From: a bacterium
GTDB lineage: Bacteria > Bacillota > Clostridia > Oscillospirales > Acutalibacteraceae
Assembly (NCBI GenBank): GCA_020624805.1
Contig: JAHKVW010000017.1
Coordinates: forward strand, 6,185 to 70,184
Direction: 5' to 3'
Length of the DNA: 64,000 nt
Within the stretch, counting starts at the first letter, position 1. Every line of letters begins with the position of its first letter. The notes beneath the pieces are model-generated. The model was not told where the DNA came from and ran no database searches. It worked only from the letters and a program-made list of their open reading frames with translations. Made by a program: the position numbers and the translations under genes. Below, one piece after another: positions 22,413-38,707 of this stretch.

Positions 22413-22425
22413 TCTTACCCCTCCT

Positions 22426-24159
22426 TTACGCTTTTACTACCGCGTCAAAGCGGCAGATGGAATAGCACTTGCCGCACTTGATGCACTTGTCGATGTTGAT
22501 GACATGGGGATTCTTTACTGTACCAGAAATAGCCTCAACAGGGCAATTTCTCGCGCATAAGGTACAGCCCTTACATTTCTCAGCATTGATGCTGTATTCA
22601 ATGAGGTCGGAGCATTCGCCCGCGGGACACTTTTTGTCCTTGATGTGAGCTTCATACTCGTCACGGAAATATTTGATGGTGGTGAGAACGGGGTTCGGCG
22701 CCGTCTGACCGAGACCGCAGAGCGCGCCGTCCTTGATGGCGTAGCACAGTTCTTCGAGCAGTTCGATATCTCCTTCTTTGCCCTCGCCCTTGGTGATGCG
22801 CTCGAGCATCTCGAGCATCCTCTTGGTGCCGATCCTGCAATGCACGCATTTGCCGCAGCTCTCTTTCGCGGTGAAATCGAGGAAGAACTTCGCCATCCCG
22901 ACCATGCAGGTGCTTTCATCCATGACGACCATACCGCCCGATCCCATGATCGCGCCGGTAGCGCCGAGCGCCTTGTAGTCGATCACGGTGTCGATGAGCG
23001 AAGCCGGGATACATCCTCCGGAGGGACCGCCCATCTGGACAGCTTTAAAGGGCTTGTCGGATTTCATGCCGCCGCCGATGTCGAAGATGACGTCACGCAG
23101 GGTTTTACCCATCGGGATCTCGACCAGACCGCTTCTCTTGACCTTGCCGGTAACGGCGAATACCTTGGTGCCTTTACTGCCCTCGGTACCCATTGCGGCG
23201 AAGGCTTCTCCGCCGTTGTTGATGATCCACGCGACATTAGCGAAGGTCTCGACGTTGTTGATATTACTGGGCTTTCTCCAAAAACCGCTTTGTGCAGGGA
23301 ACGGAGGCTTCAATCTCGGCATACCGCGATGACCCTCTAAGGATTCGATCAGCGCGGTTTCCTCACCGCAGACGAACGCGCCCGCGCCCGCCTTGATCAT
23401 GAAGTCGCAGGAGAAGTCGGTGCCGAAAATGTTGTTGCCGATGATGCCCTTTTCACGCGCTTGTTCCAGTGCGTTCTTTAAACGCTTGATCGCGAGCGGA
23501 TACTCCGCTCTGACGTAAACGACCGCGTGCTTTGCGCCGATAGCGTACGCGCCGATGAGCATACCCTCGATCAGGTTGTGCGGATCGGATTCGATGACCG
23601 CGCGATCCATGAACGCGCCGGGGTCGCCCTCGTCGGCGTTACAGATCAGATACTTTTCCTCGCCCTCGCTCTGTCGCGCCGCGTTCCACTTGAACCATGT
23701 CGGGAAGCCCGCGCCGCCGCGACCCGCTAAGCCTGAGGTCTTGATGATCTCGATGACCTCCTCGGGTGTTTTTTCTGTAAGGCAGGATTTCAGCGCGGTG
23801 TAGCCGTCTTTTTCAATATATTCTTCGATCTTCTCAGGGTTGATGATACCGCAATTGCGTAACGCAATACGAGTCTGCTTGTTGAGAAACTCGCTGTCCT
23901 CGTCCGAAACTACCAAATTCTCGATCTTGGAACGATCGCCTGTGTTGATGTACTCCGCGATCGCGGGAGCGTCGCTCTCGGAAACCTTGACCAATCTGGT
24001 GAGCTTATCCTCGTCATAGATATCCACGATCGGCTCTAAGTAGCACATACCGATACAACCTGCAACGCTGGCGTTGATGTTTTCTTTTAGGAGTGCCTGA
24101 CGTACTTTTTCCGCGCCCGCGGCGATACCGCAGGAGCCCTGTCCGATGACGATCCTCAT
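22426..24159 (-). CDS. NuoF/HydB-like NADH-binding flavoprotein subunit
   Basis: GRGGAGFPT, CNADEGDPGAFMDR, FVCGEETAL, ESCGKCVHCRIG, C-terminal 2x[4Fe-4S]. Confidence 0.92.
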   Translation of the reverse strand: MRIVIGQGSCGIAAGAEKVRQALLKENINASVAGCIGMCYLEPIVDIYDEDKLTRLVKVSESDAPAIAEYINTGDRSKIENLVVSDEDSEFLNKQTRIALRNCGIINPEKIEEYIEKDGYTALKSCLTEKTPEEVIEIIKTSGLAGRGGAGFPTWFKWNAARQSEGEEKYLICNADEGDPGAFMDRAVIESDPHNLIEGMLIGAYAIGAKHAVVYVRAEYPLAIKRLKNALEQAREKGIIGNNIFGTDFSCDFMIKAGAGAFVCGEETALIESLEGHRGMPRLKPPFPAQSGFWRKPSNINNVETFANVAWIINNGGEAFAAMGTEGSKGTKVFAVTGKVKRSGLVEIPMGKTLRDVIFDIGGGMKSDKPFKAVQMGGPSGGCIPASLIDTVIDYKALGATGAIMGSGGMVVMDESTCMVGMAKFFLDFTAKESCGKCVHCRIGTKRMLEMLERITKGEGKEGDIELLEELCYAIKDGALCGLGQTAPNPVLTTIKYFRDEYEAHIKDKKCPAGECSDLIEYSINAEKCKGCTLCARNCPVEAISGTVKNPHVINIDKCIKCGKCYSICRFDAVVKA

Positions 24160-24632
24160 ACTGCCGCCTCCCTTAATTCTTTCAAAATCTTCTTGGTCTT
24201 GTCGGGGGTCAGCGAGCCGTAGGTGTCCTCATTTACCATCATGACAGGGGAGAGGGAACAGCAACCCAGACACGCCACGCATTTGAGTGAGAACAAGCCG
24301 TCCTCGGTGGTCTGACCGTCGTCGATGCCCAGCTCATCCTTGATGGTCTGTAAGATCAGCTCACTGCCGTTGACATGGCACGCCGTACCCTGACACAGCA
24401 TGATCAGGTACTTGCCGACAGGCTCAAAGCGGAACTGGGTGTAGAAGGTGCCGACGCCCATGATCTCACTCGTCGCGATGCCCGTTCTCTCCGAGATCAG
24501 CTCGATCGCTTCCTTCGGCAGATAGCCGTAGATGTCCTGCGTGTGCTGTAAAATAGTGATCAGACTGCCCTTGACCGCGGCGTATTCATCGAGCACGCCG
24601 CTAAGCAGGGAAAGGTCGATATTATCATTCAT
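24156..24632 (-). CDS. NuoE/HydC-like [2Fe-2S] subunit
   Basis: CQGTACHVNG...CVACLGCCSLSP; GGAGGA RBS before ATG 24632. Confidence 0.92.
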   Translation of the reverse strand: MNDNIDLSLLSGVLDEYAAVKGSLITILQHTQDIYGYLPKEAIELISERTGIATSEIMGVGTFYTQFRFEPVGKYLIMLCQGTACHVNGSELILQTIKDELGIDDGQTTEDGLFSLKCVACLGCCSLSPVMMVNEDTYGSLTPDKTKKILKELREAAV

Positions 24633-24748
24633 AAAGTTCCTCCAAATGCTGATTCCGCATGATCGAATCAGCCCATAATAATACGCCAAAAGCGCACTCT
24701 CACATGTTCGGAGAGCGCGCTTATTGTTCTGTCAAAAATCGCTTACGA

Positions 24749-26113
<1,365 letters not shown>

Positions 26114-26129
26114 TTATATGTTGCACTGC

Positions 26130-26227
26130 AAAAAAAACGCAAAAAAATAAAGGCACCTCGGACTATGTGTCCGAGACGCCTTTGTCTCAACAGCACGAAT
26201 TATACGCCCAAATTGTTCGTTTGTCAA
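26130..26227 (-). promoter_or_regulatory. gdhA promoter plus ANTAR-type hairpin/terminator
   Basis: TTGACA-N17-TATAAT, then GAGAC[AAAGGC]GTCTC inside the terminator 5' arm (...GGTGCCTTT ATTTTTTT). Confidence 0.85.
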
Positions 26228-26328
26228 GCAATTGAATGAAATTTAACAAAACTTACTAATTGGTTTTGCAGGATTTCCGTTCTTTTCTTGCAAAATGTGA
26301 AAAGATCGGGCTCACTCAAAATGAGGGA

Positions 26329-26420
26329 TTGACATCAAAAAATAATTATGTTAAAGTGTTAGCGGAACAAAGGCGTTCATTTGAGGCAGTATTCTGCGCT
26401 GCCCCAAATGGCGCTTTTTT
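26329..26420 (+). promoter_or_regulatory. GS-like 1 promoter plus ANTAR-type attenuator, copy 1
   Basis: TTGACA-N17-TAAAGT; GAAC[AAAGGC]GTTC; terminator ending GGCGCTTTTTT. Confidence 0.85.
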
Positions 26421-26430
26421 ATCTTTCATA

Positions 26431-26474
26431 ATCATTGCGAGGGCTCGGCACGATTGTCGGCTCGCGGCAATCAC
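26431..26474. repeat. REP-like family 1 unit between the tandem attenuators
   Basis: ATCATTGCGAGG...CGCGGCAATCAC. Confidence 0.75.
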
Positions 26475-26489
26475 AACTGATCTCGATAT

Positions 26490-26539
26490 GAACAAAGGCG
26501 TTCATCTAGACTGTTCCGGGTCTAAGTGTCGCCTTTTTT
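26490..26539 (+). promoter_or_regulatory. ANTAR-type attenuator, copy 2, before GS-like 1
   Basis: GAAC[AAAGGC]GTTC; terminator ending TCGCCTTTTTT. Confidence 0.85.
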
Positions 26540-26591
26540 ATATTTATATGTTTTTATATGGCATTACCTCTGAAAAGGAGCGAGTGAGAGC

Positions 26592-27800
26592 ATGAATCAT
26601 ACAGAGCAGGAATTGATGAAGCAGATCGAAGAAGAGGACGTCAAATTCATCCGTCTTTCCTTCTGTGATATCTACGGCGTTCAAAAGAATATTTCGATCC
26701 AGCGCAGCGAACTGCCCAGAGCCTTTGAGAAAGGCATCGGGATCGACGCTTCCTACATCAACGGCTTCGGCGGCGATTACGGCAAGGATATCTGGCTCCA
26801 TCCCGAGACGGATACGATCACGGTTCTGCCGTGGAGACCCGAGCACGGCAAGGTCGTCAGGATGTTCTGTACGCTGACCTACGAGGACGGTACTCCTGTC
26901 GAGACCGACACCCGCGCGGTATTAAAGGACGCTGTCAAATACGCCCAATCAAAGGGCTATCGCTTCCACTTCAAGTCCGAGCTGCAGTTCTATCTGTTCA
27001 AGACGGACGGCGACTCGGAGAATACCGGCGTTCCCTATGACAACGCAGGGTATATGGACATTGCGCCTCTCGACAAGGGCGAGAACGTGCGCCGTGAGAT
27101 CTGTCTGACGCTCGAACAGATGGGGATCGATCCCGAAAGCTCCCACCATGAGGCAGGACCCGGACAGAACGAGATCGACTTCCGCTATTCCGATCCGATC
27201 ACTGCCGCGGACAATACCGTGACTTTTCTCAGCGTCGTGCGCACTATCGCCGCACGCAACGGGCTTTATGCCGACTTCTCCCCAAAGCCGATCAAGGATA
27301 AGACCGGCTCGGCGCTGCATATTTCCGTATCGACAAAGGCAAAATCAGGAGAGGATGTGACCGACGCCGCGATCGCGGGCATCCTGCATAATATCGCCGG
27401 TATGACGGTATTCCTCAACCCGAAGGCGGAATCCTTTGAGCGCTTCGGCAAGCACAAAGCTCCGAAGTATATCACATGGTCACAGACGAATCGTTCTCAG
27501 CTTGTATTCTCGCGGCATACCGAAAGCGGCAGCCGCTGTGCTCAGCTGCGTTCACCCGACCCTCAGGCGAATCCGTATCTGGCATACGCCCTGATGATCT
27601 ACGCGATCATGGACGGTATCGAAAACGGCAGAACGTTACCGCAGCCCACGGATGAAAACGTCTTACAGCTCATCACCGATTCAGCAGAACCCCAAAAGCT
27701 GCCCGACAGTCTGGAGAAGGCGCGTATCGAAGCAACAAATTCACCGCTTGTACAGCGGTTCATCCCCTCGGCAGTGACCATGGTTTACTGTGCAGATTAA
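26592..27800 (+). CDS. glutamine synthetase type I-like protein, catalytically degenerate (paralog 1)
   Basis: GS fold motifs (VKFIRL.FCDI.G, HHEAGPGQNEIDF, RSPDP.ANPY), but ELQF, HKAP, LVFS and QLRS replace EPEF, YEAP, IRIP and EVRS; 402 aa. Confidence 0.85.
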   Translation: MNHTEQELMKQIEEEDVKFIRLSFCDIYGVQKNISIQRSELPRAFEKGIGIDASYINGFGGDYGKDIWLHPETDTITVLPWRPEHGKVVRMFCTLTYEDGTPVETDTRAVLKDAVKYAQSKGYRFHFKSELQFYLFKTDGDSENTGVPYDNAGYMDIAPLDKGENVRREICLTLEQMGIDPESSHHEAGPGQNEIDFRYSDPITAADNTVTFLSVVRTIAARNGLYADFSPKPIKDKTGSALHISVSTKAKSGEDVTDAAIAGILHNIAGMTVFLNPKAESFERFGKHKAPKYITWSQTNRSQLVFSRHTESGSRCAQLRSPDPQANPYLAYALMIYAIMDGIENGRTLPQPTDENVLQLITDSAEPQKLPDSLEKARIEATNSPLVQRFIPSAVTMVYCAD

Positions 27801-27874
27801 CAGCGTAGTAACCACTGCATTTTACCATATTATTGTTTACCTGATAACAAAAATCATCGAAAGGAGAGCGCACC

Positions 27875-28456
27875 TTGGACTTTACAGAGCACCGGTACAG
27901 AATACTGATCGTATCCTCGGACGACAGGTTCGGCAGAGAAGTCAGCACTCTCCTGCAGGGCGACCAATTTCAGCAGGATTTTTCCCGCAGCGCGTCGGAC
28001 GCCCGCTGTAAGCTGCTCGAAAACCAATACGATTTTGTGATCGTCAACGCGCCGTTGAGGGATGAGTTCGGCTCCCGTCTGTGTATCGATATCAGCCGCA
28101 ACAACGGCACCATCGCCGCGATCTTTGCGGCAACCGATACCTATGACGAGATCTACGCGAAGGTGTCCGTGCACGGCGTTTTCGCGCTCCATAAGCCGAC
28201 CTCCAAAACACTGGTCTCTCAGGCGGTGTCGCTGATGGTGTGCGCCAGAGAACGTCTGCGGTCGTTGGAAAAGAAGGTCGGCAACACCGAGAGCAAGCTC
28301 GACGAGATCCGCATCGTCAACAAAGCCAAATGGCTGTTGATCGATCAGGAAGGGCTGAGCGAGGCGGACGCGCATAAGTATATCGAGAAGTCCGCGATGG
28401 ATGCCGGTATCACCAAACGGCTTGCCGCTCAAATGATCATTGACAAATACCTGTAA
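27875..28456 (+). CDS. ANTAR antiterminator with pseudo-receiver domain (paralog 1)
   Basis: C-terminal RIVNKAKWLLI...SEADAHKYIEKSAMD ANTAR domain; phospho-Asp position is Asn (FVIVNAP). Confidence 0.9.
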   Translation: MDFTEHRYRILIVSSDDRFGREVSTLLQGDQFQQDFSRSASDARCKLLENQYDFVIVNAPLRDEFGSRLCIDISRNNGTIAAIFAATDTYDEIYAKVSVHGVFALHKPTSKTLVSQAVSLMVCARERLRSLEKKVGNTESKLDEIRIVNKAKWLLIDQEGLSEADAHKYIEKSAMDAGITKRLAAQMIIDKYL

Positions 28457-28497
28457 TAGGCGTATTTTCTAAGAGAGAATACGTCTTTGTCTTTTTC
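28453..28497 (+). terminator. terminator between ANTAR1 and glmS resembling a degenerate ANTAR element
   Basis: AGGCGTATTTTCT/AGAGAATACGTCT stem plus TTTTT; 3' arm ACGTCTTTGTC is complementary to GACAAAGACGT. Confidence 0.6.
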
Positions 28498-28535
28498 GGG
28501 CAGTTGACATATTATATTAGTAAAGGAGAACACTT

Positions 28536-30362
28536 ATGTGCGGAATAGTAGGATATGTCGGACCGCGTGACTGCGCGGATGTGCTGGTATCGGCTCTGAC
28601 AAAGCTGGAATATCGCGGATATGACTCCGCCGGTATCGCCGTGTTTGAAAACGGAAAGATCGAAGTCGCCAAAACCAAGGGCAGACTGGCTGATCTGACC
28701 GAGAAGATGGAGAAAGAAGGCAAGCCGCAGGGTCACGCCGGAATCGGCCATACGCGCTGGGCGACCCACGGCGAGCCGCGCGATATCAACTCTCACCCCC
28801 ACTCGGGGCGCAGGGTCACCATCGTCCATAACGGCATCATCGAGAACTACAAACAGCTCAAGCAATTCCTGATCGAAAACGACCGCACCGAGTTCCTCTC
28901 CGATACCGACACCGAGGTCGTGGCGCAGCTGCTTGACTTCTACTATGAGGGCGATCCCATTCGCTGTATCCGCCGTACGCTCCACGAGCTGCGCGGTTCC
29001 TTTGCGCTGGGGATCGTTTTCGCCGACCGTCCCGAGACCGTTTACGCGGTACGGTGTGAAAGCCCGCTGATCGTCGGTCAGGGTCAGGACGAGGTGTTCA
29101 TCGCCTCCGATGTGCCCGCCATCATCAAATATACCAAGGAATACTATCTGCTGGAGCAGGGCGAGATCGCGATCCTGAAAAACGGCAGTGTAGATTTTTG
29201 CACCCTGCACGGCAGAAAACTGAAGAAGGAACTGCTCTTTGCCGACTGGGATGAGGACAGCGCCGAAAAGGGCGGTTATCCGCACTTTATGCTCAAGGAG
29301 ATCCATGAGCAGCCCACCGCCGTCAAAACGACGGTCACGCCGCGCATCGAGGACGGTCTGCCCGATCTGTCCGAGTGCGGCATCATTTTCGGCACGCTGA
29401 GAAATCTGAAAAACATCTTCATCGTCGCCTGCGGTACCGCTATGCACGCCGGTATGGTGGGCAAATATGTCATCGAAAAGCTCGCGCGTGTACCCGTAAC
29501 AGTCGATATCGCCTCCGAGTTCCGCTATCGCGATCCGCTGTTGACGCACGACGACCTGATCATCATTATCAGCCAGAGCGGTGAGACCGCCGACAGTAAG
29601 GCAGTACTGAGTCTCGCCAAGTCGCGCGGCGCCAAAACGCTCGCGATCGTCAACGTCAAGGGCAGCTCCATTGCCAGAGAAGCCGATATGGTCATCTACA
29701 CCCACGCGGGTCCCGAGATCGCCGTCGCCTCCACCAAGGCGTATATGGTCCAGCTCGCGGTCATGTATCTGTTCGCCTTTGAAACAGCGCTCGCCAAGGG
29801 TAAGCTCGAGGAGAAGGAGTGCCGCAGACTGACTGCCGCGCTGCTCAAAATGCCCGATGTGATCGAGAAAACCATCGACAAGGTCATGGATATGTGCCAG
29901 TATGTTTCCACCAAGCTGATCACCGCCGACAGCCTGCTGTATATCGGCAGGGGGCTTGATTACGCGCTGTCGATGGAGGGCTCCTTAAAGCTCAAGGAGA
30001 TCAGCTATATTCATTCCGAAAGCTACGCCGCGGGTGAGCTCAAGCACGGTACGATCTCGCTGATCACCGAGGGGATGCCCGTGATCGCTGTCGCGACGCA
30101 GAACACCCTGCTCGAAAAGACCGTCAGCAACATCAAAGAGGTCAAGGCGCGCGGCGCGATGACCATCGTGATCTGTGACGAAGAAGCGGATATCGACGCG
30201 GACGCGGTCGACTACATGATCCGCATCCCGAAGATCAATGAGACGCTGATGCCGATGGTCGCCACAGTGCCCATGCAGCTCCTCGCGTACTACACCTCGG
30301 TCAACAAAGGCAACGACGTCGATAAGCCCCGCAATCTCGCCAAATCCGTCACGGTTGAGTAA
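28536..30362 (+). CDS. glmS: glutamine--fructose-6-phosphate aminotransferase
   Basis: MCGIVG, EYRGYDSAG, GHTRWATHG, SQSGETAD, ELKHG, PRNLAKSVTVE. Confidence 0.97.
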   Translation: MCGIVGYVGPRDCADVLVSALTKLEYRGYDSAGIAVFENGKIEVAKTKGRLADLTEKMEKEGKPQGHAGIGHTRWATHGEPRDINSHPHSGRRVTIVHNGIIENYKQLKQFLIENDRTEFLSDTDTEVVAQLLDFYYEGDPIRCIRRTLHELRGSFALGIVFADRPETVYAVRCESPLIVGQGQDEVFIASDVPAIIKYTKEYYLLEQGEIAILKNGSVDFCTLHGRKLKKELLFADWDEDSAEKGGYPHFMLKEIHEQPTAVKTTVTPRIEDGLPDLSECGIIFGTLRNLKNIFIVACGTAMHAGMVGKYVIEKLARVPVTVDIASEFRYRDPLLTHDDLIIIISQSGETADSKAVLSLAKSRGAKTLAIVNVKGSSIAREADMVIYTHAGPEIAVASTKAYMVQLAVMYLFAFETALAKGKLEEKECRRLTAALLKMPDVIEKTIDKVMDMCQYVSTKLITADSLLYIGRGLDYALSMEGSLKLKEISYIHSESYAAGELKHGTISLITEGMPVIAVATQNTLLEKTVSNIKEVKARGAMTIVICDEEADIDADAVDYMIRIPKINETLMPMVATVPMQLLAYYTSVNKGNDVDKPRNLAKSVTVE

Positions 30363-30556
30363 AGGCCCCCTTTCCTAAGGAGATTCCCCTGTTAGGGGAA
30401 ATGTCCGCAAAGCGGACAAAAGGGTCTGCAGCCTCCGCTGAGGAGTGCTGGCGCCGATAGGCGACTGGGGGTTGATACTTTTTAAGTCATATATTTCAAT
30501 AAAGATTGCAGGCAACCCTCCGCCCCTGCGGGGCACCTCCCTTAGAAAAGGGAGGC
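30363..30556. repeat. REP-like family 2 cluster (CCCCT...AGGGG hairpins)
   Basis: Short GC hairpins (TGTCCGCAAAGCGGACA, CCTCCCCTTAGAAAAGGGAGG) similar to 32192-32460 and 33777-33802. Confidence 0.6.
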
Positions 30557-30800
30557 AAAAAAGTACAGACCCCGTCGCAAGGCGGAGTCTGTAAACCAAA
30601 GGGGAGTGTGTGCAATTTTCTTTTGGCAATAAATAATGTTGATGAAGTATATATTGTTATAAGAAATCTCCCCTAAAGTCCGTTTTTGATCCTGATTTGA
30701 ATAGATCAAGATCACGAAAAAAGAAGGGTTTTGGGATTCCAAAACAGCAAAAAAGCGCCTTGAACCCCCTTGGGGGATTCAAGACGCCTTTGTCTTTACT
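30557..30800 (-). ncRNA. candidate ANTAR-controlled small RNA (~245 nt)
   Basis: Strong promoter plus attenuator with no RBS-led ORF downstream; two internal hairpins; ends at a hairpin plus U6 at 30557-30592. Confidence 0.5.
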
Positions 30801-30835
30801 GAGTGCATTATACGCTCCGATAACCAAATTGTCAA
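30749..30835 (-). promoter_or_regulatory. orphan promoter plus ANTAR-type attenuator
   Basis: TTGACA-N17-TATAAT; AGAC[AAAGGC]GTCT; terminator ...GGGGGTTCAAGGCGCTTTTTT. Confidence 0.85.
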
Positions 30836-30874
30836 GTGTTTTCAAAATATTTTAACGCTTTGATGTGCGAAAGA

Positions 30875-30903
30875 TTGACACGGCACGCCGATAATGATAT
30901 GAT
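30875..30903 (+). promoter_or_regulatory. sigma70 promoter of GS-like 2 (no ANTAR hairpin in the leader)
   Basis: TTGACA-N17-TATGAT. Confidence 0.65.
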
Positions 30904-30941
30904 ACAGAAGAAGATTTCACTTCTGAAAAGAGGGTGTCACC

Positions 30942-32150
30942 GTGACAACGGAAGAAAACCAGATCATGCAGTATATCGAGGAAGAGGACGTCAAGTTCAT
31001 CCGTCTTGCTTTCTGCGATATTTTCGGCGCGCAAAAGAATATCTCCGTCCAGCCCACCGAGCTGCAAAGGGCATTTGAAAGGGGCTATCCGATCGACGCT
31101 TCTTATGTGTCGGGCTTCGGCGGCGATTACGGCGTCGACGTTTGGCTGCGTCCCGAAGCGGATACCGTTTCCGTTCTCCCGTGGCGGCCGGAGCACGGCA
31201 AGGTGATCCGGATGTTCTGCGCACTGTGCTACTCAGACGGCAGACCGATCGAGGCGGATACGCGCTCTTTGTTGCGCGGCGCTGTGGAATATGCCCGCCA
31301 AAAGGGCTATCGCTTCCACTTCAAGTCCGAGATGCAGTTCTATCTTTTCAAGACCGATGAAAACGGAAACCGAACCGCTATTCCCTACGATCACGCGGGT
31401 TATATGGATATCGCGCCGCTGGATAAGGGCGAGAATATCCGCCGCGAGGTATGCCTGACGCTCGAGCAGATGGGCGTCATGCCCGAAAGCTCGCATCATG
31501 AAGCGGGACCCGGTCAGAATGAGATCGACTTCAAGTATGCTCAAGCTCTCCCTGCCGCCGATAATACAAGCACCTTTATCTCCGTCGTCCGCACGATCGC
31601 CGCGCAAAGCGGCTTGTATGCCGATTTTTCGCCGAAGCCGATCTCCGATAAGCCCGGCTCGGCGCTCCATATCCGTATGTCTGTCAAAGCAAAGGACGGC
31701 GAGGACGTCACCGAACGCGCTATCGCGGGTATCCTGAAGAACATCGCGGACATGACCATTTTTCTCAATCCGACCGAAAAATCCTTCAAGCGATTCAACA
31801 AGATGAAAGCGCCTAAATTTATCACATGGTCGGACAAAAACCGCGCTCAGCTGATTTTTGCGACCCGTACCGAGAGCGGCGGCAGATGCTTACAGCTTCG
31901 CTCTCCCGACCCCAACGCCAATCCCTATCTCGCGTTCGCGCTGATGATATACGCGGCGGTCGACGGCATCCAAAACGACTATCCGCTTTCTCCTTCGATC
32001 GATACAGAGCTGCAATACCTCTCCTCATCCGAGCAAAACGAGATAGAGCTTTTGCCCGATACTATCGTCAGGGCGCAGAACGCGGCTCTGAACAGCGACT
32101 TCATCAAGCGGTTTGTCCCCGACAGCATCATCAAAGCATATTGTAACTGA
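30942..32150 (+). CDS. glutamine synthetase type I-like protein, catalytically degenerate (paralog 2)
   Basis: Same length (402 aa) and the same substitutions as paralog 1 (EMQF, MKAP, LIFA, QLRS). Confidence 0.85.
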   Translation: MTTEENQIMQYIEEEDVKFIRLAFCDIFGAQKNISVQPTELQRAFERGYPIDASYVSGFGGDYGVDVWLRPEADTVSVLPWRPEHGKVIRMFCALCYSDGRPIEADTRSLLRGAVEYARQKGYRFHFKSEMQFYLFKTDENGNRTAIPYDHAGYMDIAPLDKGENIRREVCLTLEQMGVMPESSHHEAGPGQNEIDFKYAQALPAADNTSTFISVVRTIAAQSGLYADFSPKPISDKPGSALHIRMSVKAKDGEDVTERAIAGILKNIADMTIFLNPTEKSFKRFNKMKAPKFITWSDKNRAQLIFATRTESGGRCLQLRSPDPNANPYLAFALMIYAAVDGIQNDYPLSPSIDTELQYLSSSEQNEIELLPDTIVRAQNAALNSDFIKRFVPDSIIKAYCN

Positions 32151-32191
32151 TAATACGAAAGGCAGTCTGTTTTCGTGACCGATAGAGCACC

Positions 32192-32460
32192 AAGCCTTCC
32201 CCTCGGGGGGAAGGTGGGCAATTTGCTCTGTGCAAATTGGTCGGATGAGGGGCTGACTTATCCGACTGTTCTTCTTAACAAAGAGAGTAATGTTTTTCCT
32301 TTATTCTCGGTATACTTTTCGCCTCACCGAGTCCGACATCACCGGGAAAGGCTATCCCCCTCATCCGTCACCCTACGGGCGACACCTTCTCCTCGCCGGA
32401 AGCGGCTCCCCCCTTGTCCTTCGGACATTCCCCCAACGGGGGTACCCCGAGGGGAAGGCT
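32192..32460. repeat. REP/MITE-like family 2 cluster between convergent genes
   Basis: Termini AAGCCTTCCCC...GGGGAAGGCT; internal CCCCTCATCCG/CGGATGAGGGG inverted copies. Confidence 0.65.
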
Positions 32461-32559
32461 TTTTGGCGACATATGACAATAAAAGATTTATCTTTTGGAC
32501 GAAAGTTCAAGGGACTGTGGAAACAAAGCATGACGCTTTATTTCCACAGTCCCTTCATT

Positions 32560-33738
32560 TTATCTCAATAACTTTTTGATTCTCTCTACCGCTTCTACGG
32601 TGTTCTCTCTGTCGCCGAAGGAGGTCAGTCGAAAATAGCCTTTTCCCTGACTGCCGAAGCCCTCGCCGGGGGTTCCGACCACCTGCGCGTTTTCGAGAAG
32701 GTAATCGAAGAACTCCCAGCTTCCCATGCCTTTGGGGCACTCCAGCCAGATATACGGTGAGTTTTTACCGCCCGTATAGAATATCCCCAGCTCGTCGAGC
32801 GCCGCGGAGATAATCCGCGCGTTCTCTTTATAGTATTCGATATTTGCTTTGAATTCTTTTTGTCCCTCTTCGGAGAATACGGCGGCCGCGGCGCACTGCA
32901 CGGGATAGGACACGCCGTTGAATTTGGTCGCCTGACGGCGGTACCAAAGGGCATGGATATTGTGACCGTCGCGGACAAGCTCCTTCGGGATCACCGTATA
33001 GCCGCAGCGCACACCGGTAAAGCCCGCTGTCTTTGACAGAGAGCAGAATTCGATCGCACATTCTCTTGCCCCGTCGATCGCAAAGATCGAGCGCGGACAA
33101 TCATCCTCGATAAACGCCTCATATGCCGCGTCGTACAGGATGACCGCGTCATTTTTAATGGCGTAATCCACCCACGCCTTGAGCTGATCGGTACTGTAAG
33201 CCGCGCCGGTGGGATTATTCGGCGAGCAAAGATAGATGATATCCGCATGGATGCTCTCGTCGGGCATGGGCAGAAAACGATTCTCCCGCGTACCCGGCGC
33301 GTATACGATCTTCCTGCCCGCCATGATGTTCGCGTCGACATAGACGGGATAGACGGGATCGGGCACCATCACGGTGTTATCGGCGCCGAAAATATCGCCG
33401 ATATTGCCCGTGTCGGACTTTGCGCCGTCGCTGATAAAGACCTCATTCGCTTCGATCTTAACGCCGAAGCCGTCATAGTATCGGGCGACCGCCTCACGTA
33501 CAAAATCATAGCCCTCATATTCGGGATAACCCTTGAAGGTCTCTTTGAAGCTCAGCTCTCCCGCGCCGACCTTCATCGCCTGTACGGCAGTGCGCGGCAG
33601 CGGGAGCGTAACGTCGCCGATGCCGAGCCGGATGAGCTTTTGCTCAGGATGCGCGGCGGCATACGCCGAAGTCTTTTTCGCTATCTCGGCAAAGAGATAG
33701 TTTGGGACTAAATTATCAAAATTTCGGTTGATCTTCAT
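32560..33738 (-). CDS. dapL: LL-diaminopimelate aminotransferase
   Basis: NYLFAEIAKK, LGIGDVT, SDGAKSD, CSPNNPTG, SLSKTAGFTGVRCG, FRLTSFG. Confidence 0.95.
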   Translation of the reverse strand: MKINRNFDNLVPNYLFAEIAKKTSAYAAAHPEQKLIRLGIGDVTLPLPRTAVQAMKVGAGELSFKETFKGYPEYEGYDFVREAVARYYDGFGVKIEANEVFISDGAKSDTGNIGDIFGADNTVMVPDPVYPVYVDANIMAGRKIVYAPGTRENRFLPMPDESIHADIIYLCSPNNPTGAAYSTDQLKAWVDYAIKNDAVILYDAAYEAFIEDDCPRSIFAIDGARECAIEFCSLSKTAGFTGVRCGYTVIPKELVRDGHNIHALWYRRQATKFNGVSYPVQCAAAAVFSEEGQKEFKANIEYYKENARIISAALDELGIFYTGGKNSPYIWLECPKGMGSWEFFDYLLENAQVVGTPGEGFGSQGKGYFRLTSFGDRENTVEAVERIKKLLR

Positions 33739-33800
33739 ATCGTTTCCTTCCTTGGCAGGTTGAGATACAGTTATTCAAGGCTCCCTTTGGTAAAGGGGAG

Positions 33801-34382
33801 CTATAGATATCTGTCGATCACGATCTGAGCCGCCTGACGCTTGGTGATCCCCGCCGCCATCGCCTGCTGTTCGATATACCGATGAGCATCGATCTCGCTC
33901 ATATCCTCATTATCGATCAAAAACCATTTTGCTTTGTTGACGATGCGGATCTCCTGCAGTTTATCCTCGGCTTTGCCCGCCTTTTTCTCTACGGTTCTCA
34001 ACATCTCGCGCGCGGAGATCAAGAGAGATAACGCCTGTATGATCGTCTGCTGTGAGGACGGCTTGCGAATGACAAAAACGCCGTAAGACACGGTTCTTTG
34101 CATGATGTCCTCGTACACATCCGAGGGCGCGAAGATGACCGCCAGCGTGCCGACATGATCCGTCACGTCGATGCACAGGTGCGAGCCGAACTCGTCGCTG
34201 AGCGGCGCGTTGACGATCACAAAATCATAGCTCTTTTCCGTCAGAACGCGTCTTGCCTCGCCCGCGTTCGTCACATGATCGGTGTGAAAATGTCTTTCGC
34301 GCAGAAGGGAGCTTATCTCTTGCATGAACCTTTCAGACAGCGAGACCACCAACGCATGATAGCGAACCTGTTCTAAAGTCAT
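33801..34382 (-). CDS. ANTAR antiterminator with pseudo-receiver domain (paralog 2)
   Basis: YDFVIVNAPL (Asn at the phospho-site); RIVNKAKWFLI...SEIDAHRYIEQQAM. Confidence 0.9.
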   Translation of the reverse strand: MTLEQVRYHALVVSLSERFMQEISSLLRERHFHTDHVTNAGEARRVLTEKSYDFVIVNAPLSDEFGSHLCIDVTDHVGTLAVIFAPSDVYEDIMQRTVSYGVFVIRKPSSQQTIIQALSLLISAREMLRTVEKKAGKAEDKLQEIRIVNKAKWFLIDNEDMSEIDAHRYIEQQAMAAGITKRQAAQIVIDRYL

Positions 34383-34431
34383 ATTCTCCCTTCACCTCTT
34401 TTCGATCCGTACACGGAAGTACGATCAACGT

Positions 34432-34516
34432 AAAAAGGCGCTATTCGGGCACAAGCTCCCAAATAAACGCCTTTGTTTATCGAGGCTATTATAGCATTAT
34501 TCGCATATTATGTCAA
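34432..34516 (-). promoter_or_regulatory. ANTAR2 promoter plus ANTAR-type attenuator (autoregulation)
   Basis: TTGACA-N17-TATAAT; AAAC[AAAGGC]GTTT; terminator ...CCCGAATAGCGCCTTTTT. Confidence 0.85.
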
Positions 34517-34570
34517 TCGTTTAAAACGTCAAAGCGTTAAATTTTTTTGATAATTTTTTCACGATTACCC

Positions 34571-34663
34571 TTGACAAATGAAAATTCGCGTCGTATAATG
34601 CGTGCTGTAAAGACAAAGGCGTTTTGAACCTGCGTGGTTTGAAACGCCTTTGTCTATTTCTTT
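34571..34663 (+). promoter_or_regulatory. glnN promoter plus ANTAR-type attenuator
   Basis: TTGACA-N17-TATAAT; AGAC[AAAGGC]GTTT; 3' arm AAACGCCTTTGTCT then ATTTCTTT. Confidence 0.88.
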
Positions 34664-34682
34664 ACGAAAAGGAGAAGGTATT

Positions 34683-36776
34683 ATGGCAAACGTAGCAGAA
34701 TATTTCGGAAGTCTGGTATTTGACGACAAGACGATGAAAGAGCGGCTGGATCCCAAAATCTACAAGCAGCTCCGCAAAACGATCGACGACGGCGAGCAGC
34801 TGAATATTCAGGTAGCGAACGCCGTAGCCGCCGCGTTAAAGGAATGGGCGGTAGAAAAGGGCGCGACCCACTATACCCACTGGTTCCAACCGCTGACCGG
34901 TATCACCGCCGAAAAGCATGACAGCTTTATCACTCCCTCGCCCGACGGCAGAGTGATCATGGAATTCTCCGGCAAGGAGCTGATCAAGGGCGAGCCTGAC
35001 GCGTCCTCGTTCCCCTCGGGCGGTCTGCGCGCGACCTTTGAAGCAAGAGGCTATACCGCGTGGGACCCCACCTCCTACGCTTTCATCAAGGGCAAGACCC
35101 TTTGTATCCCCACCGCGTTCGCTTCCTACAGCGCCGACGCGCTGGATAAAAAGACGCCGCTTTTGCGCTCCATGCAGGCGCTGAACATTCAGGCAACGCG
35201 CGTCTTGAAGCTCTTCGGCAACGAGGACGTCAAGCGTGTCGTCACCTCTGTCGGACCCGAGCAGGAATACTTTTTGGTTCCCAAGGAGCTGTACGCGAAG
35301 CGCAAGGATCTGATCTATACGGGACGAACCCTCTTCGGCGCGCGTCCTCCCAAGGGTCAGGAGCTCGACGATCACTATTTCGGTACCATCAAGCCGCGTG
35401 TGCTCGCCTATATGGAGGATCTCAACGACGAGCTGTGGAAGCTCGGCATCCTCGCGAAAACCCAGCATAACGAGGTCGCGCCCGCTCAGCATGAGCTGGC
35501 TCCCATCTACACGACGACCAATGTCGCGACCGATCACAACCAGCTGACGATGGAGATCATGCAGAAGGTCGCGGAGCGTCACGGTCTGGTATGTCTGCTG
35601 CACGAAAAGCCCTTTAAGGGCGTGAACGGCTCGGGCAAGCACAACAACTGGTCGATCGGCACGGATACCGGCGTCAACCTGCTCACTCCCGGTGAGACGC
35701 CGTTTGAGAACGTCCAGTTCCTGCTGTTCCTCGTAGCGGTCATCAAGGCGGTCGACGAGTATCAGGATCTGCTGAGACTGTCCGTCGCGACCGCCGGTAA
35801 CGATCACCGTCTGGGCGCGAATGAAGCGCCGCCCGCCGTCATCTCCATCTTCCTCGGCGACGAGCTGACTGCCGTTCTGGACGCGATCGAGAACGATACC
35901 GAGTATGAGGGCACCAAGAAGAAATATATGAAGCTCGGCGTTGACGTTCTGCCGCGTTTCAGACGCGACACCACCGACCGCAACCGTACCTCGCCCTTTG
36001 CGTTCACGGGCAACAAGTTCGAGTTCCGTATGCTCGGTTCCTCCAACTCCATCGCCTGCTGCAATATGATGCTCAACTCCGCTGTCGCGGAAGTCTTGAA
36101 GCAGTTTGCGGATGTGCTGGAGAATTCCGAGAACTTTGAAAATGATGTTCACAACCTGATCCGCAAGACGATCAAGGATCACAAGCGGATCATCTTCAAC
36201 GGCAACGGTTATGACGACGCTTGGATCGAAGAAGCCGAAAAGCGCGGACTCTCCAATCTCAGAACCACCGCCGACGCGATGCCGCATCTGCTGGATGAAA
36301 AGAACGTCGCGATGCTGACCTCTCATAAGGTGTTCACCAAAGCGGAGCTGGAAAGCCGCATGGAGATCATGTTGGAAAACTACGTCAAGCAGGTCAACAT
36401 CGAAGCACTGACGATGGTGGATATGACCGGCAAACAGATCATCCCCGCGATCGAAACCTATCTGATGAAGCTTTTGAAGAATGTTTCTATGAAGAAGGCG
36501 ATCTCGCCCGATATCAGCTGCGCCTATGAGACCGCGAACATCGAGAAGCTCTCCGCTGCCTGTGACGAGATGAGCGCCAACGCGGGTATCCTCGAGCGCT
36601 TGGCGGAGCACCTCGCTCATATCGATGATATCGTGGAGCAGGCGAACTTCGTCCGCGACGAGCTCCTGCCGCAGATGGATACGCTGCGCAGCTATGCCGA
36701 CGCCGCGGAAGCGGTCGTTGACGCGGAGATCTGGCCGCTGCCGACCTACGGCGAGCTGCTCTTCGGCGTAAGATAA
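34683..36776 (+). CDS. glnN: glutamine synthetase type III
   Basis: [75 protein letters not shown]; catalytic motifs intact. Confidence 0.96.
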
Positions 36777-36779
36777 ATA

Positions 36780-36825
36780 GGTTGAGATTGCCACAGCATT
36801 GACAGATCAATGCTTCGCAATGACG
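36780..36825. repeat. REP-like family 1 unit
   Basis: GGTTGAGATTGCCACAGC...GCTTCGCAATGAC. Confidence 0.8.
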
Positions 36826-36835
36826 ATTGATAAAA

Positions 36836-36876
36836 GTACAAAGGCGTACTCTGCTTTCGCGGGGTACGCCTTTATT
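36836..36876 (+). promoter_or_regulatory. intercistronic ANTAR-type attenuator before amt
   Basis: GTAC[AAAGGC]GTAC inside the AAAGGCGTACTCTGC/GCGGGGTACGCCTTT stem. Confidence 0.82.
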
Positions 36877-36900
36877 AGTGGTCAGTGGTTAGTGGTCAGT
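36877..36900 (+). repeat. heptamer tandem repeat AGTGGTY x3
   Basis: AGTGGTC AGTGGTT AGTGGTC AGT. Confidence 0.8.
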
Positions 36901-36979
36901 TAACCGATGACCGAAACAAAATAAACAATGCTAATGACCGGCAATATGCAGCCGGTTACTCAATTTGGAAGGTGAAACT

Positions 36980-38707
36980 ATGACTATGACAGTAGAATTC
37001 TGGTTCCTGATCGGAGCCGCGCTGGTGTTCTGGATGCAGGCAGGCTTTGCCATGGTAGAGGCGGGCTTTACCCGCGCCAAGAACGCCGGAAACATCATCA
37101 TGAAAAACCTGATGGACTTTTGTATCGGCACGGTCGTGTTCGCTCTCTTGGGCTACACGATCATGATGGGCGAGGATACCCTGTTCGGACTGATCGGTAT
37201 CCCGAACATGGACTTGTTCGGTCACTTCAAGGAGTTCATCGCGTCTCCCGGGAACGGCGACTTTACCGCCGCTTCCACATTCGTATTCAACCTCGTTTTC
37301 TGCGCCACCACCGCGACCATCGTATCCGGCGCGATGGCGGAAAGAACGAAATTCTCCGCTTACTGTATCTACTCGGGCGTTATCTCGCTGTTCATCTACC
37401 CGATCGAAGCGCACTGGATCTGGGGCGGCGGCTGGCTCTCTCAGCTGGGCTTCCATGACTACGCAGGTTCCTGCGCGATCCACATGGTCGGCGGCATCGC
37501 GGCATTGATCGGCGCGGCGGTGCTCGGACCCCGTCTCGGAAAATACGAGCGTGATGAAAACGGCAAGGTCGTCAAGGTCAACGCATTCCCCGGTCACAAC
37601 ATCGTCATCGGCGCGTTGGGCGTATTCATCCTGTGGCTCGGTTGGTACGGCTTCAACGGCGCGGCGGCGACTACTCCGAGTGAGCTTGCTTCTATCTTTT
37701 TGACTACCACCATCGCTCCCGCGGTCGCCACCTGCGTCACGATGGCATTCACATGGATTAAAAACGGCAAGCCCGATGTATCCATGTGCCTGAACGCATC
37801 CTTGGCAGGCTTGGTCGGAATCACCGCAGGCTGCGACGCGCTTGACGCGATCGGCGCGACCGTCGTCGGCGTTGTCAGCGGTATTCTGGTTGTCGTCGTG
37901 GTCGAGGTGCTTGACATGAAGCTGCACATCGACGATCCCGTCGGCGCGGTCGGCGTTCACATGGCAAACGGTATCTGGGGCACGATCGCGGTCGGTCTGC
38001 TCGCGAATCCCGACGCTCCCGCAGGGCTCAGCGGCTTGCTGTATACAGGAGATTTCCGTCAGCTCGGCTTACAGCTCTTAGGCTTCGGCTCCGTTGCGGT
38101 ATACGCGGCGATCATGATGGTCATCACCTTTGTGATCATCAAAAAGACGATCGGACTGCGCGCAACGGCTGAGGAAGAGATCATGGGTCTCGACATCACC
38201 GAGCACGGCCTGCCGTCGGCATACGCGGGCTTTGCGGCGACATCGGAGGACTATTCCGTATACGGCGAGGACGTCGCCGTCGTCGCGGGTGAAACGCCCG
38301 TGGCAGAAGCTGTCGAGGTCAAGAGCGTTCCGTCCTTTGATAACGGCGAGCAACGGTTCACAAAGATCGAGATCATCTGTAAGGAAGCTCGGTTTGAAAA
38401 GCTCAAGAGAGCGATGGCACAACTCGGCATCACCGGCATGACCGTTACCCATGTCATGGGCTACGGCTCACAGAAGGGCAAGCCCGAGTATTACCGCGGT
38501 GTTTTGGTCGATACCAACCTGCTGCCGAAGATCCAGGTCGAGATGGTCGTATCCGCGATCCCTGTCCGCGACGTGATCGAAGCGGCAAAGAGAGCGCTCT
38601 ATACCGGACACATCGGCGACGGCAAGATCTTCGTTTACAACGTAGATAATATTGTCAAGGTGCGCACCGGAGAAGAAGGCTATGCCGCCTTGCAGGATGT
38701 GGAATAA
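36980..38707 (+). CDS. amtB: ammonium transporter fused to a C-terminal P-II (GlnK-like) domain
   Basis: MQAGFAMVEAG, HWIWGGGWL, DYAGSCAIH, WLGWYGFNG, DDPVGAVGVH; P-II GITGMTV...YRG...TGHIGDGKIFV...VRTGE. Confidence 0.95.
   Translation: MTMTVEFWFLIGAALVFWMQAGFAMVEAGFTRAKNAGNIIMKNLMDFCIGTVVFALLGYTIMMGEDTLFGLIGIPNMDLFGHFKEFIASPGNGDFTAASTFVFNLVFCATTATIVSGAMAERTKFSAYCIYSGVISLFIYPIEAHWIWGGGWLSQLGFHDYAGSCAIHMVGGIAALIGAAVLGPRLGKYERDENGKVVKVNAFPGHNIVIGALGVFILWLGWYGFNGAAATTPSELASIFLTTTIAPAVATCVTMAFTWIKNGKPDVSMCLNASLAGLVGITAGCDALDAIGATVVGVVSGILVVVVVEVLDMKLHIDDPVGAVGVHMANGIWGTIAVGLLANPDAPAGLSGLLYTGDFRQLGLQLLGFGSVAVYAAIMMVITFVIIKKTIGLRATAEEEIMGLDITEHGLPSAYAGFAATSEDYSVYGEDVAVVAGETPVAEAVEVKSVPSFDNGEQRFTKIEIICKEARFEKLKRAMAQLGITGMTVTHVMGYGSQKGKPEYYRGVLVDTNLLPKIQVEMVVSAIPVRDVIEAAKRALYTGHIGDGKIFVYNVDNIVKVRTGEEGYAALQDVE

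Follow-up and report, generated by a model that had tools for sequence, protein, structure and literature searches.

The question raised by the 64,000-nucleotide stretch considered here (GenBank assembly GCA_020624805.1, contig JAHKVW010000017.1, positions 6,185 to 70,184, from a bacterium of the family Acutalibacteraceae; hereafter the window) is what two paralogous proteins of glutamine synthetase (GS) type may do for the cell once several residues of the active site have been replaced in both. GSL1 (26592..27800, plus strand, ATG start), which derives from the GSI-alpha branch of the enzyme, and its paralogue GSL2 (30942..32150, plus strand, GTG start) each comprise 402 residues and lie in an island of nitrogen genes that also encodes two ANTAR-domain proteins and a type III glutamine synthetase (GSIII). 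The comparison of sequences set out below leads us to propose, with a rough probability of 0.65, that GSL1 and GSL2 are non-catalytic, signal-sensing partners of ANTAR antiterminators of the NitR type, and that they act as sensors of nitrogen status for the genes of nitrogen assimilation.

Substitutions in GSL1 and GSL2 and their conservation

A preliminary description of the window, made from the letters alone, had reported two type I paralogues of 402 residues; both reading frames are present as described there, and both GS domains are recognized by Pfam in each protein, the beta-grasp domain Gln-synt_N with E values of 4.4e-18 and 1.1e-16, and Gln-synt_C with 6.5e-72 and 2.8e-74. The closest solved structures in the PDB are Firmicute GSI-alpha enzymes (E about 1e-85). 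The two proteins share 67% of their residues, somewhat more than the roughly 60% that had been estimated by eye, and their genes are 71-76% identical, in register. Residues were assigned by alignment to GlnA from B. subtilis (Bs), which is 100% identical to PDB 4s0r and whose numbering agrees with that of the preliminary description. Seven substitutions are common to GSL1 and GSL2, namely R62G, E134Q, G243A, E304K, R321F, R331C and E333Q. Five of them had been read from sequence motifs and are present in the alignment, in which EPEF has become ELQF/EMQF (E134Q), YEAP has become HKAP/MKAP (E304K), LIRIP has become LVFSR/LIFAT (R321F), VEVRS has become AQLRS/LQLRS (E333Q), and NGSG has become TGSA/PGSA (G243A); the change of R62 to glycine and of R331 to cysteine are two losses beyond that list. 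Among the six metal ligands checked (E132, E134, E189, E196, H245 and E333), two are replaced, one at the n1 site (E134Q) and one at the n2 site (E333Q), the Glu-flap is changed (E304K), and two arginines that contact the ATP phosphates are gone (R321F, R331C). The residues that had been called retained, E132, E189, E196, H245, R298, R316 and R335, are indeed kept. From this set of replacements we consider it quite probable that GSL1 and GSL2 are catalytically dead.

The C-terminus is altered as well. The alignment to B. subtilis GlnA stops at residue 420, the last 24 residues (Bs 421-444) are missing, and by this alignment both proteins are without the C-terminal helices through which the two hexamer rings of GS are locked together. 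A truncation had been foreseen, but at a length of some 40 residues; most of the remaining difference is accounted for by a 12-residue internal deletion after H245. The GlnA equivalog model (TIGR00653) returns 265.7 and 275.2 bits for the two proteins at a cut-off of 429.15, and the model for gamma-glutamylputrescine synthetase (NF045547; PuuA/GlnA3-like) returns 157.8 and 156.3 bits at a cut-off of 650. The expectation that automated annotation would name these genes glnA is only partly correct; it holds for their relatives, which public records label 'glutamine synthetase' or 'glutamine synthetase family protein', but not at the level of the equivalog model, under whose cut-off both proteins fall.

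The window comes from a Ruminococcus of the rumen. For comparison, 79 related genome loci were compiled, the nearest of which are found in metagenome-assembled genomes named Ruminococcus sp. or Clostridiales and are 92-99% identical to the window. The 84 GS-like proteins of this set split into two classes. Class A, a Ruminococcus clade of 37 sequences including the two copies of the window, carries the full substitution set in almost all members, with F, S or A at position 321. Class B, with 47 sequences from Lachnospiraceae, Oscillospiraceae, Acutalibacteraceae, Christensenellaceae, Anaerotignum and others, is 55-60% identical to GSL1, and its changes are limited to the loss of R62 and to E304K, the metal and ATP residues being intact. 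R62 is missing from all 84 proteins. Many members of class B (loci L033-L079) combine Asp at position 62 with Lys at position 304, which may represent a charge swap of the R62'-E304 contact known from feedback-inhibited GS. The pairwise ratio of nonsynonymous to synonymous substitution rates (dN/dS) amounts to 0.03-0.15 within class A (median 0.08, 177 pairs), to 0.06 in class B and to 0.20 between GSL1 and GSL2, and 85 columns are invariant across 48 aligned GS-like sequences. As the same set is fixed in almost all 37 class A sequences at a dN/dS of about 0.08, the shared substitutions are not due to chance. These figures support the earlier suggestion, which also hinted at the ANTAR proteins, that selection has kept GSL1 and GSL2 for an altered or non-catalytic function and that they are not decaying.

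An exhaustive representative search uncovered many further GS-like families with degenerate active sites, and the genomic context was taken for nine of these. In all nine R62 is absent and an ANTAR gene lies downstream of the GS-like gene, the phospho-acceptor Asp of the ANTAR partner being replaced by Asn or Ser; the GS-like genes often follow a split cluster for glutamate synthase (GOGAT) or stand beside GSIII and a gene for an ammonium transporter fused to PII (amt-PII). The active site has been altered in different ways, with E132S, E304L, R316Y and E333I in the P0123 family, D53N, E132A, R316S, R321T and E333K in the P0125 family, E132S and E333I in the P0128 family, E304G in P0136, and E304R in the proteins from Acetivibrio straminisolvens and A. 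mesophilus, to be compared with P0503 (Clostridium), P0167 (Eubacteriaceae), P0146 and P0124, where every catalytic residue is present. E189, E196, H245, R298 and R335 are retained in all GS-like families. A profile search yielded 120 proteins, 119 of which lack R62; position 304 is occupied by E in 96 of them, by K in 20 and by R in 4. That lineages lose the active site differently is as expected for a protein that cells need even when they can do without its catalysis. The distribution suggests an indispensable role other than catalysis, with the enzyme activity preserved in lineages that still profit from it and given up in those where GSIII would take over. Two giant predicted proteins, P0121 (4424 residues) and P0151 (2757 residues), were also encountered, with 12 and 6 GS-like stretches, respectively.

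ANTAR partners and the leader attenuators

The gene for ANTAR1 (27875..28456, plus strand) begins 75 nt downstream of GSL1 and encodes a protein of 193 residues composed of a pseudo-receiver, a long helix and the ANTAR domain. A second protein of this kind, ANTAR2 (33801..34382, minus strand), likewise of 193 residues, shares 55% of them with ANTAR1. GSL2 is presumed to be its partner; the two genes lie on opposite strands with an aminotransferase gene in between. The predicted structure of ANTAR1, with a predicted local distance difference test score (pLDDT) of 88, finds its best full-length structural matches in Rv1626, EutV and AmiR, in agreement with a comparison by sequence, and superimposes on RNA-bound EutV with a template modelling (TM) score of 0.79. 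Relative to CheY, the phospho-acceptor D57 of the ANTAR1 receiver is Asn, and D12/D13 are Ser/Ser. The same holds for the ANTAR partners in general, where D57 is Asn in 76 of 76 aligned sequences and D12 is Ser in 74 of 76, K109 being retained, and no kinase gene accompanies the ANTAR partners in the loci examined. As phosphorylation of such a receiver is not possible, control of the ANTAR proteins must come from a partner protein, as it does in AmiC-AmiR and NasS-NasT.

The gene order points to the GS-like protein as that partner. Across the 79 loci, 74 of 89 GS-like genes lie directly upstream of a same-strand ANTAR gene (about 194 codons; median gap 36 nt), and five have too little downstream sequence for adjacency to be judged. 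Eight of the ten non-adjacent cases are orthologues of GSL2 in the arrangement seen in the window, with the ANTAR gene two genes off wherever the contig reaches that far. The other two are L014, in which glmS directly follows the GS-like gene and the ANTAR gene is three genes away, and L072, where the protein is a canonical GSI-alpha whose catalytic signature is complete and the same genome also has a GS-like/ANTAR pair. The close relatives L014 and L080-82 have one GS-like and one ANTAR gene per locus, the window has two of each, and L013 departs from this one-to-one ratio with one GS-like gene and two ANTAR genes. A regulatory role of the GS-like proteins fits this conserved pairing with ANTAR pseudo-response regulators, and it appears probable from the comparative evidence that they are regulatory partners of the ANTAR proteins.

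Candidate targets of such a system can be recognized in the leaders of the island. The motif ACAAAGGCG occurs eight times in the window, compared with 0.5 occurrences expected. Seven of the eight sites fall in leaders in sense orientation, at a distance of 8-12 nt behind a near-consensus promoter of sigma70 type, these being the leaders of gdhA, GSL1 (two in tandem), ANTAR2, GSIII and amt-PII and an orphan leader, and the eighth is an antisense copy within the palindromic terminator of GSIII. Matches to CAAAGGCG at 42474, 51441 and 53377 lie inside open reading frames, without the context of a promoter or terminator, and were taken as chance. The element common to the leaders is a hairpin, here termed P1, with a variable stem and an invariant AAAGGC hexaloop closed by a C-G pair, whose loop and 3' arm double as the 5' arm of an intrinsic terminator. 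Folding energies run from -21 to -35 kcal/mol for the terminators and from -1.7 to -7.4 kcal/mol for P1 by itself; P1 being so weak by comparison, a protein would be needed for it to win.

The leader of gdhA (26139..26227, minus strand) has a consensus promoter at 26227-26199, a P1 with a 7-bp stem and the AAAGGC loop at 26171-26190, and a terminator with U-tract at 26183-26149. Two complete attenuators, 125 nt apart, precede the GSL1-ANTAR1 operon on the plus strand. The upstream one (26329..26421) consists of a sigma70-like promoter (26329-26357), P1 with AAAGGC (26365-26378) and an overlapping terminator with U-tract, and the downstream one (26488..26543) has a P1 with a 6-bp stem and AAAGGC (26488-26505) inside the terminator hairpin, again followed by a U-tract. 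GSL2 has a promoter at 30875..30903 (plus strand; TTGACA-17-TATGAT with TG), and there is no attenuator between it and the GTG start, so that the regulators are wired differently. The ANTAR2 leader (34432..34516, minus strand) comprises a consensus promoter (34516-34488), a P1 with a 7-bp stem and AAAGGC (34462-34481) and a terminator. That of GSIII (34571..34665, plus strand) has a consensus promoter (34571-34599), P1 at 34610-34625 and a 20-bp terminator at 34611-34655. In the amt-PII leader (36835..36877, plus strand), P1 with AAAGGC (36835-36850) resides inside a strong hairpin with a poor U-tract.

The conservation of P1 extends to the related loci. Hairpins with a hexaloop of the form AxxGxx display AAAGGC in 122 cases and every other loop in at most 22, and the motif is also present in leaders of GOGAT in relatives; in the distant families the hexaloops are AAAGGT, AAAGGG or AAGGGC. 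For covariation, 76 instances were taken with the 8-mer and a T-run downstream as the sole criteria, and the amt leader of the window was added. Within this set 85.7% of the stem cells are paired, to be compared with 39-50% in slid registers, and 142 cells show a double change, as opposed to 55 +/- 12 in shuffles, the observed values being reached by none of 500 shuffles; as two stem types dominate, the independent covariation events are fewer than these counts suggest. The loop agrees with the published ANTAR signature of A at position 1 and G at position 4 (PMC12591593), and Ramesh et al. had earlier found leaders of ANTAR type in Firmicutes, ahead of the gene for glutamine synthetase and related genes of nitrogen metabolism. 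Rfam gave no match at gathering threshold in the whole window and only chance-level ones in a permissive scan of 25900-37100, so the leader motif is not a curated family.

Contigs from rumen metatranscriptomes cover both GSL genes, GSL1 more than GSL2, and one RNA contig of 811 nt runs from the end of GSL1, including its stop codon, into ANTAR1. Between 24500 and 38800 the contig depth (runs X1-X3 and X5) is very high for gdhA, GSIII and amt, moderate for GSL1-ANTAR1 and glmS, and low for GSL2 and ANTAR2. Such contigs are weak evidence; they may include DNA and, at the identity threshold of 93%, related species probably contribute.

Candidate ligand, mechanism and rival explanations

A clue to the signal is provided by the archaeal enzymes that respond to 2-oxoglutarate. 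The 2-oxoglutarate pocket of GS from M. thermolithotrophicus is formed, according to crystallography, by F18', R20', R88', R174, R175 and S191 (PMC10799026), and that of M. mazei GlnA1, seen by cryo-electron microscopy, by F24, R26, S38, R87, R172, R173 and S189; in the latter assembly is driven by 2-oxoglutarate in the manner of a molecular glue (PMC11957540). Mapping by the numbering offsets of the two papers and HMMER coordinates places F19, R21, S35, R82, R167, R168 and S184 of GSL1 at the equivalent positions, all intact. These seven are invariant in 84 of 84 GS-like proteins except for a single Ala at the S35 (Mm S38) position, no clashing Tyr or Glu occurs at pocket positions, and, apart from minor R/K and S/A exchanges, the pocket also persists in the distant families and among the 120 profile-search proteins. 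Three of the positions are occupied by Tyr, Glu and Thr in B. subtilis GS, an enzyme that is not responsive to 2-oxoglutarate (PMC10799026). The residue that reads glutamine in the enzymes from B. subtilis, M. mazei and M. shengliensis is R62 (PMC10799026, PMC11957540), and the glutamine-insensitive GS of M. thermolithotrophicus has Gly there (PMC10799026). The conserved pocket, its divergence in B. subtilis GS, the Gly62 of the M. thermolithotrophicus enzyme and the 2-oxoglutarate-driven assembly in M. mazei together favour 2-oxoglutarate as the ligand of the GS-like proteins, an assignment that we make tentatively and at somewhat less than even odds.

The following sequence of events can be envisaged. 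GSL1 would pair with ANTAR1 and GSL2 with ANTAR2. With nitrogen plentiful, the GS-like protein would bind the pseudo-receiver and hold the ANTAR protein inactive, and transcripts from the strong, constitutive-looking promoters would end at the terminators of the leaders so controlled, those of gdhA, GSL1-ANTAR1, ANTAR2-aminotransferase, GSIII and amt-PII. When nitrogen becomes scarce, 2-oxoglutarate would accumulate and enter the inter-subunit allosteric pocket of the GS-like protein, changing its conformation or oligomeric state, perhaps with glutamine or glutamate leaving the remnant active site. The freed ANTAR dimer would then bind and stabilise the nascent P1, whose formation engages the 5' terminator arm and would permit read-through. 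As GSL1-ANTAR1 and ANTAR2 themselves lie behind attenuators, positive feedback may be expected, and the plain promoter of GSL2 would suit a sensor that is needed before induction. We infer the physical contact between GSL and ANTAR, the sign of regulation and the ligand from comparative evidence; that the GS-like proteins are negative regulators of ANTAR has, in our judgement, a slightly better than even chance.

Several observations weigh against this proposal. E189 and E196 remain at the n1 site and E132 and H245 at the n2 site, which leaves room for some binding of metal or nucleotide and for residual chemistry. The AlphaFold2 model of GSL1, built on a shallow alignment of 36 sequences with identities of 66% or more, is poor (pLDDT 57.8) and affords no structural check of pocket integrity. 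Four of the seven pocket residues (R22, R169, R170 and S186) are also found in the 2-oxoglutarate-unresponsive GS of B. subtilis, and only F20, S36 and R83 discriminate from it. GSL2 is not adjacent to ANTAR2. Each attenuator contains one conserved hexaloop hairpin, where the characterised targets of EutV, NasR and AmiR contain two; no second conserved hexaloop was found in the attenuators of the window and its relatives, whose terminators have variable apical loops of 3-9 nt without the A1/G4 signature. Glutamate dehydrogenase, the gdhA product, is usually an enzyme of nitrogen excess, yet its gene carries the same type of leader. The basis of the mechanism is comparative throughout.

Among other explanations, the one that departs least from the proposal retains the sensor partner of ANTAR and assigns it a different ligand, glutamine or glutamate in the remnant active site, so that the protein would be an amino-acid sensor like AmiC and 2-oxoglutarate would have no part, or only that of a second, antagonistic signal. 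E189, E196, H245, R298, R335 and G241 are indeed invariant everywhere, as is D53 with the exception of D53N in the P0125 family, and the glutamine-loaded enzyme is the signal-bearing form for TnrA and GlnR in B. subtilis (PMC9249791, PMC4335299). However, no GS-like protein examined has the glutamine-reading R62, nor do 119 of the 120 proteins from the profile search, and the clade of GSL1 and GSL2 has also lost the Glu-flap, which closes over the ligand; this explanation is unlikely, though not negligible. It is rather improbable that the proteins are enzymes of altered chemistry, gamma-glutamyl-amine ligases or transferases/hydrolases that stand beside ANTAR merely as members of a regulated operon. 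Such an origin has precedents in other GSI paralogues, for instance GSI-gamma, that became gamma-glutamyl-polyamine synthetases (PMC10799026), and P0503, P0167, P0146 and P0124 within the ANTAR-linked clade look intact. On the other hand, the residues now found at two metal ligands and two ATP-binding arginines are unable to do the job, the destruction of different catalytic residues in each lineage argues against a single new conserved chemistry, the score of 156-158 bits is far from the cut-off of 650 for gamma-glutamylputrescine synthetase, and GSL2 lies outside any ANTAR-controlled operon.

It could also be thought that the proteins are inactive subunits or chaperones which modulate GSIII, GOGAT or GlmS instead of ANTAR, as GSIII, GOGAT, glmS or pyrG are often neighbours; this is very improbable, given that ANTAR is the sole near-universal and immediately adjacent neighbour, that GSIII has a different subunit architecture, and that the invariant pseudo-receiver would be left unexplained. 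Finally, the missing C-terminal helix and the replaced catalytic residues might be taken for signs of the decay of glnA duplicates, which has practically no probability left: with a dN/dS of about 0.08, substitutions fixed in almost all 37 class A sequences, 85 invariant columns in 48 sequences, intact reading frames and transcribed genes, decay is excluded by the selection analysis.

Known systems and the surrounding nitrogen island

The pairing of a GS gene with an ANTAR gene has a counterpart in the clostridial glnA-nitR pair, known since the 1990s, whose GS is a working enzyme that was reportedly cloned by complementation; we know of no signal input that has been identified for NitR. In C. 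saccharobutylicum this ANTAR protein induces the GS/GOGAT genes under nitrogen limitation by a mechanism described as 'not fully understood' (PMC6316151). According to Stutz et al. 2007, as summarized in PMC6316151, the module of C. saccharobutylicum and C. acetobutylicum shares the order of GSI-alpha followed by ANTAR, and likewise an ammonium-assimilation regulon and control by antitermination under nitrogen limitation. Its GS is treated as a target, whereas GSL1 and GSL2 are without two metal ligands, the flap and the ATP-binding arginines, and assimilation probably falls to GSIII. In the window GSL1 and ANTAR1 are 75 nt apart, the leaders of the nitrogen genes carry the motif and, to judge by its residues, neither GSL is the working GS of the organism. 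The GSL/ANTAR system is homologous to the clostridial glnA-nitR module, from which it departs in a GS that has apparently turned pseudoenzyme.

In AmiC-AmiR from P. aeruginosa and NasS-NasT from Paracoccus a sensor protein is likewise encoded beside the ANTAR protein, and the receiver-like domain of AmiR is not phosphorylated. In systems of this type the ligand releases the antiterminator (PMC3795266). AmiC and NasS have the fold of periplasmic binding proteins and bind amides or nitrate, and the candidate sensors considered here have the GS fold; because of this difference the GSL/ANTAR system is not a member of that family. The proposed use of a GSI-alpha as nitrogen sensor, controlling a gene regulator by protein-protein contact, recalls GS and TnrA/GlnR of B. 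subtilis. There, however, the enzyme is fully active, reads glutamine via R62 and acts on DNA-binding targets of MerR type, and since the GSLs lack R62 and have an RNA-binding partner, they do not belong to this type either. With M. thermolithotrophicus GS and M. mazei GlnA1 the GSLs share the whole pocket, including the loop residue Arg88/R87 that is absent in Bacillus GS, and with the former also the Gly at the R62 position. In those active archaeal enzymes 2-oxoglutarate drives assembly and catalysis, whereas the output of the GSLs, whose pocket is recognized by sequence, would be control of an antiterminator. Pseudoenzymes with the class I GS fold that have lost GS activity and taken on a non-catalytic role are known in vertebrates (lengsin) and in plants and fungi (NodGS/FluG); these are eukaryotic, functionally unrelated and without any link to RNA-binding regulators.

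A case of special relevance is C. thermocellum, whose sole type I GS, Clo1313_2031, is flanked by the GOGAT cluster Clo1313_2032-2036 on one side and the ANTAR gene Clo1313_2030 on the other, its type III GS being Clo1313_2038 (PMC9888227, PMC4676874, PMC5887222). The order matches that of the locus containing P0464 from A. straminisolvens, where GSIII, asnA, five GOGAT genes, the GS-like gene and ANTAR follow each other, and the order of GOGAT, GS-like gene and ANTAR recurs in the Ruminococcus locus L021. P0464 carries R62N and E304R and has an intact 2-oxoglutarate pocket; unlike GSL1 and GSL2, the Acetivibrio protein, of 438 residues, keeps all metal ligands and the C-terminus. Clo1313_2031 has been described as a GS isoenzyme and not as a sensor for ANTAR, and a further reservation about our proposal is that the membership of the C. 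thermocellum protein rests on its congener and on gene order. Deletion of this type I GS 'deregulates nitrogen metabolism' according to Rydzak et al. 2017, and genes for nitrogen assimilation and urea reportedly go up although glutamine rises. Such a phenotype fits a negative regulator of an antiterminator and not an assimilatory enzyme, and the model would explain the otherwise puzzling combination of raised glutamine and derepressed nitrogen genes.

Extending the argument beyond the window, one may ask whether the ANTAR-linked GSI-alpha clade found across Clostridia, which has lost R62 and kept the 2-oxoglutarate pocket, is as a whole the missing nitrogen sensor of the NitR-type antiterminators, with 2-oxoglutarate as molecular glue on the GS-like oligomer, by which the RNA-binding partner would then be released or activated, and with the enzyme half of the protein lost repeatedly in lineages that possess GSIII. 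On the comparative data we regard this as possible rather than probable. If true, it would give major Firmicutes of the gut and rumen a primary pathway for sensing carbon and nitrogen, different from PII/NtrBC, GlnR/TnrA and NtcA, in which GSL1 and GSL2 would be dedicated pseudoenzyme receptors left after independent losses of the enzyme, a clear bacterial case of the transition from enzyme to receptor. Ruminococcus, Lachnospiraceae and Oscillospiraceae are the dominant fermenters of rumen and gut, and nitrogen sensing in them is little understood. The repeated loss of catalysis, the retention of the pocket and the obligatorily unphosphorylatable receiver of the partner provide a testable model for the input to NitR, and thousands of entries named 'glutamine synthetase' are thereby flagged as probable regulators. 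No description of a GS-derived ANTAR partner or of a bacterial GS pseudoenzyme was found in the open-access literature, including the 2025 reviews on antiterminators and on GS.

The nitrogen island itself spans 14 kb around the GSLs, in the order gdhA, GSL1-ANTAR1-glmS, GSL2, aminotransferase/ANTAR2, GSIII and amt-PII. GSIII (34683..36776, plus strand), a probable target of the attenuation and of very high metatranscriptome depth, is likely the real assimilatory GS. It is followed by amt-PII (36965..38707, plus strand), another probable target, which encodes an ammonium transporter of 580 residues with a PII domain fused to its C-terminus. The probable target gene gdhA for glutamate dehydrogenase (24749..26095, minus strand) is followed by a set (20211-24689, minus strand) encoding NuoE-like and NuoF-like proteins and a ferredoxin/GltD-like flavoprotein of 733 residues; the set is conserved in L080-82 and may represent an NAD(P)H-supplying complex co-transcribed with glutamate dehydrogenase under the ANTAR-type leader. 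A class I/II aminotransferase gene (32560..33738, minus strand) lies downstream of ANTAR2 on the same strand, an arrangement conserved in relatives.

The gene glmS for glutamine-fructose-6-phosphate amidotransferase (28536..30362, plus strand) lies downstream of ANTAR1, and no glmS ribozyme was detected with Rfam. Genes for glutamine-consuming amidotransferases habitually come after the GS-like/ANTAR pair (loci L014, L080, L021, L085, L087, L089 and L090); in L014/L080 a gap of 3 nt separates the GS-like gene from the glmS that follows it, and in five other loci the gene is pyrG.

The orphan leader (30741..30835, minus strand), with a consensus promoter and an AAAGGC attenuator (P1 30781-30796), is followed by no open reading frame. 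Its sequence repeats, in inverted form, the promoter and leader of GSIII (30778-30839 compared with 34567-34628), a second inverted match being found between 30839-30866 and 34526-34553. Together with the promoter region of GSL2, the orphan (30741-30835 and 30839-30903) thus forms an inverted copy of the divergent promoter region of ANTAR2 and GSIII. The whole looks like the scar of a rearrangement by which an ancestral arrangement, with GSIII divergent from GSL2-ANTAR2, would have been split. The flanks of GSL2 (30363-30740 and 32151-32560) are poor in open reading frames and contain many GC-rich hairpins, among them a terminator-like element at 30593-30564.

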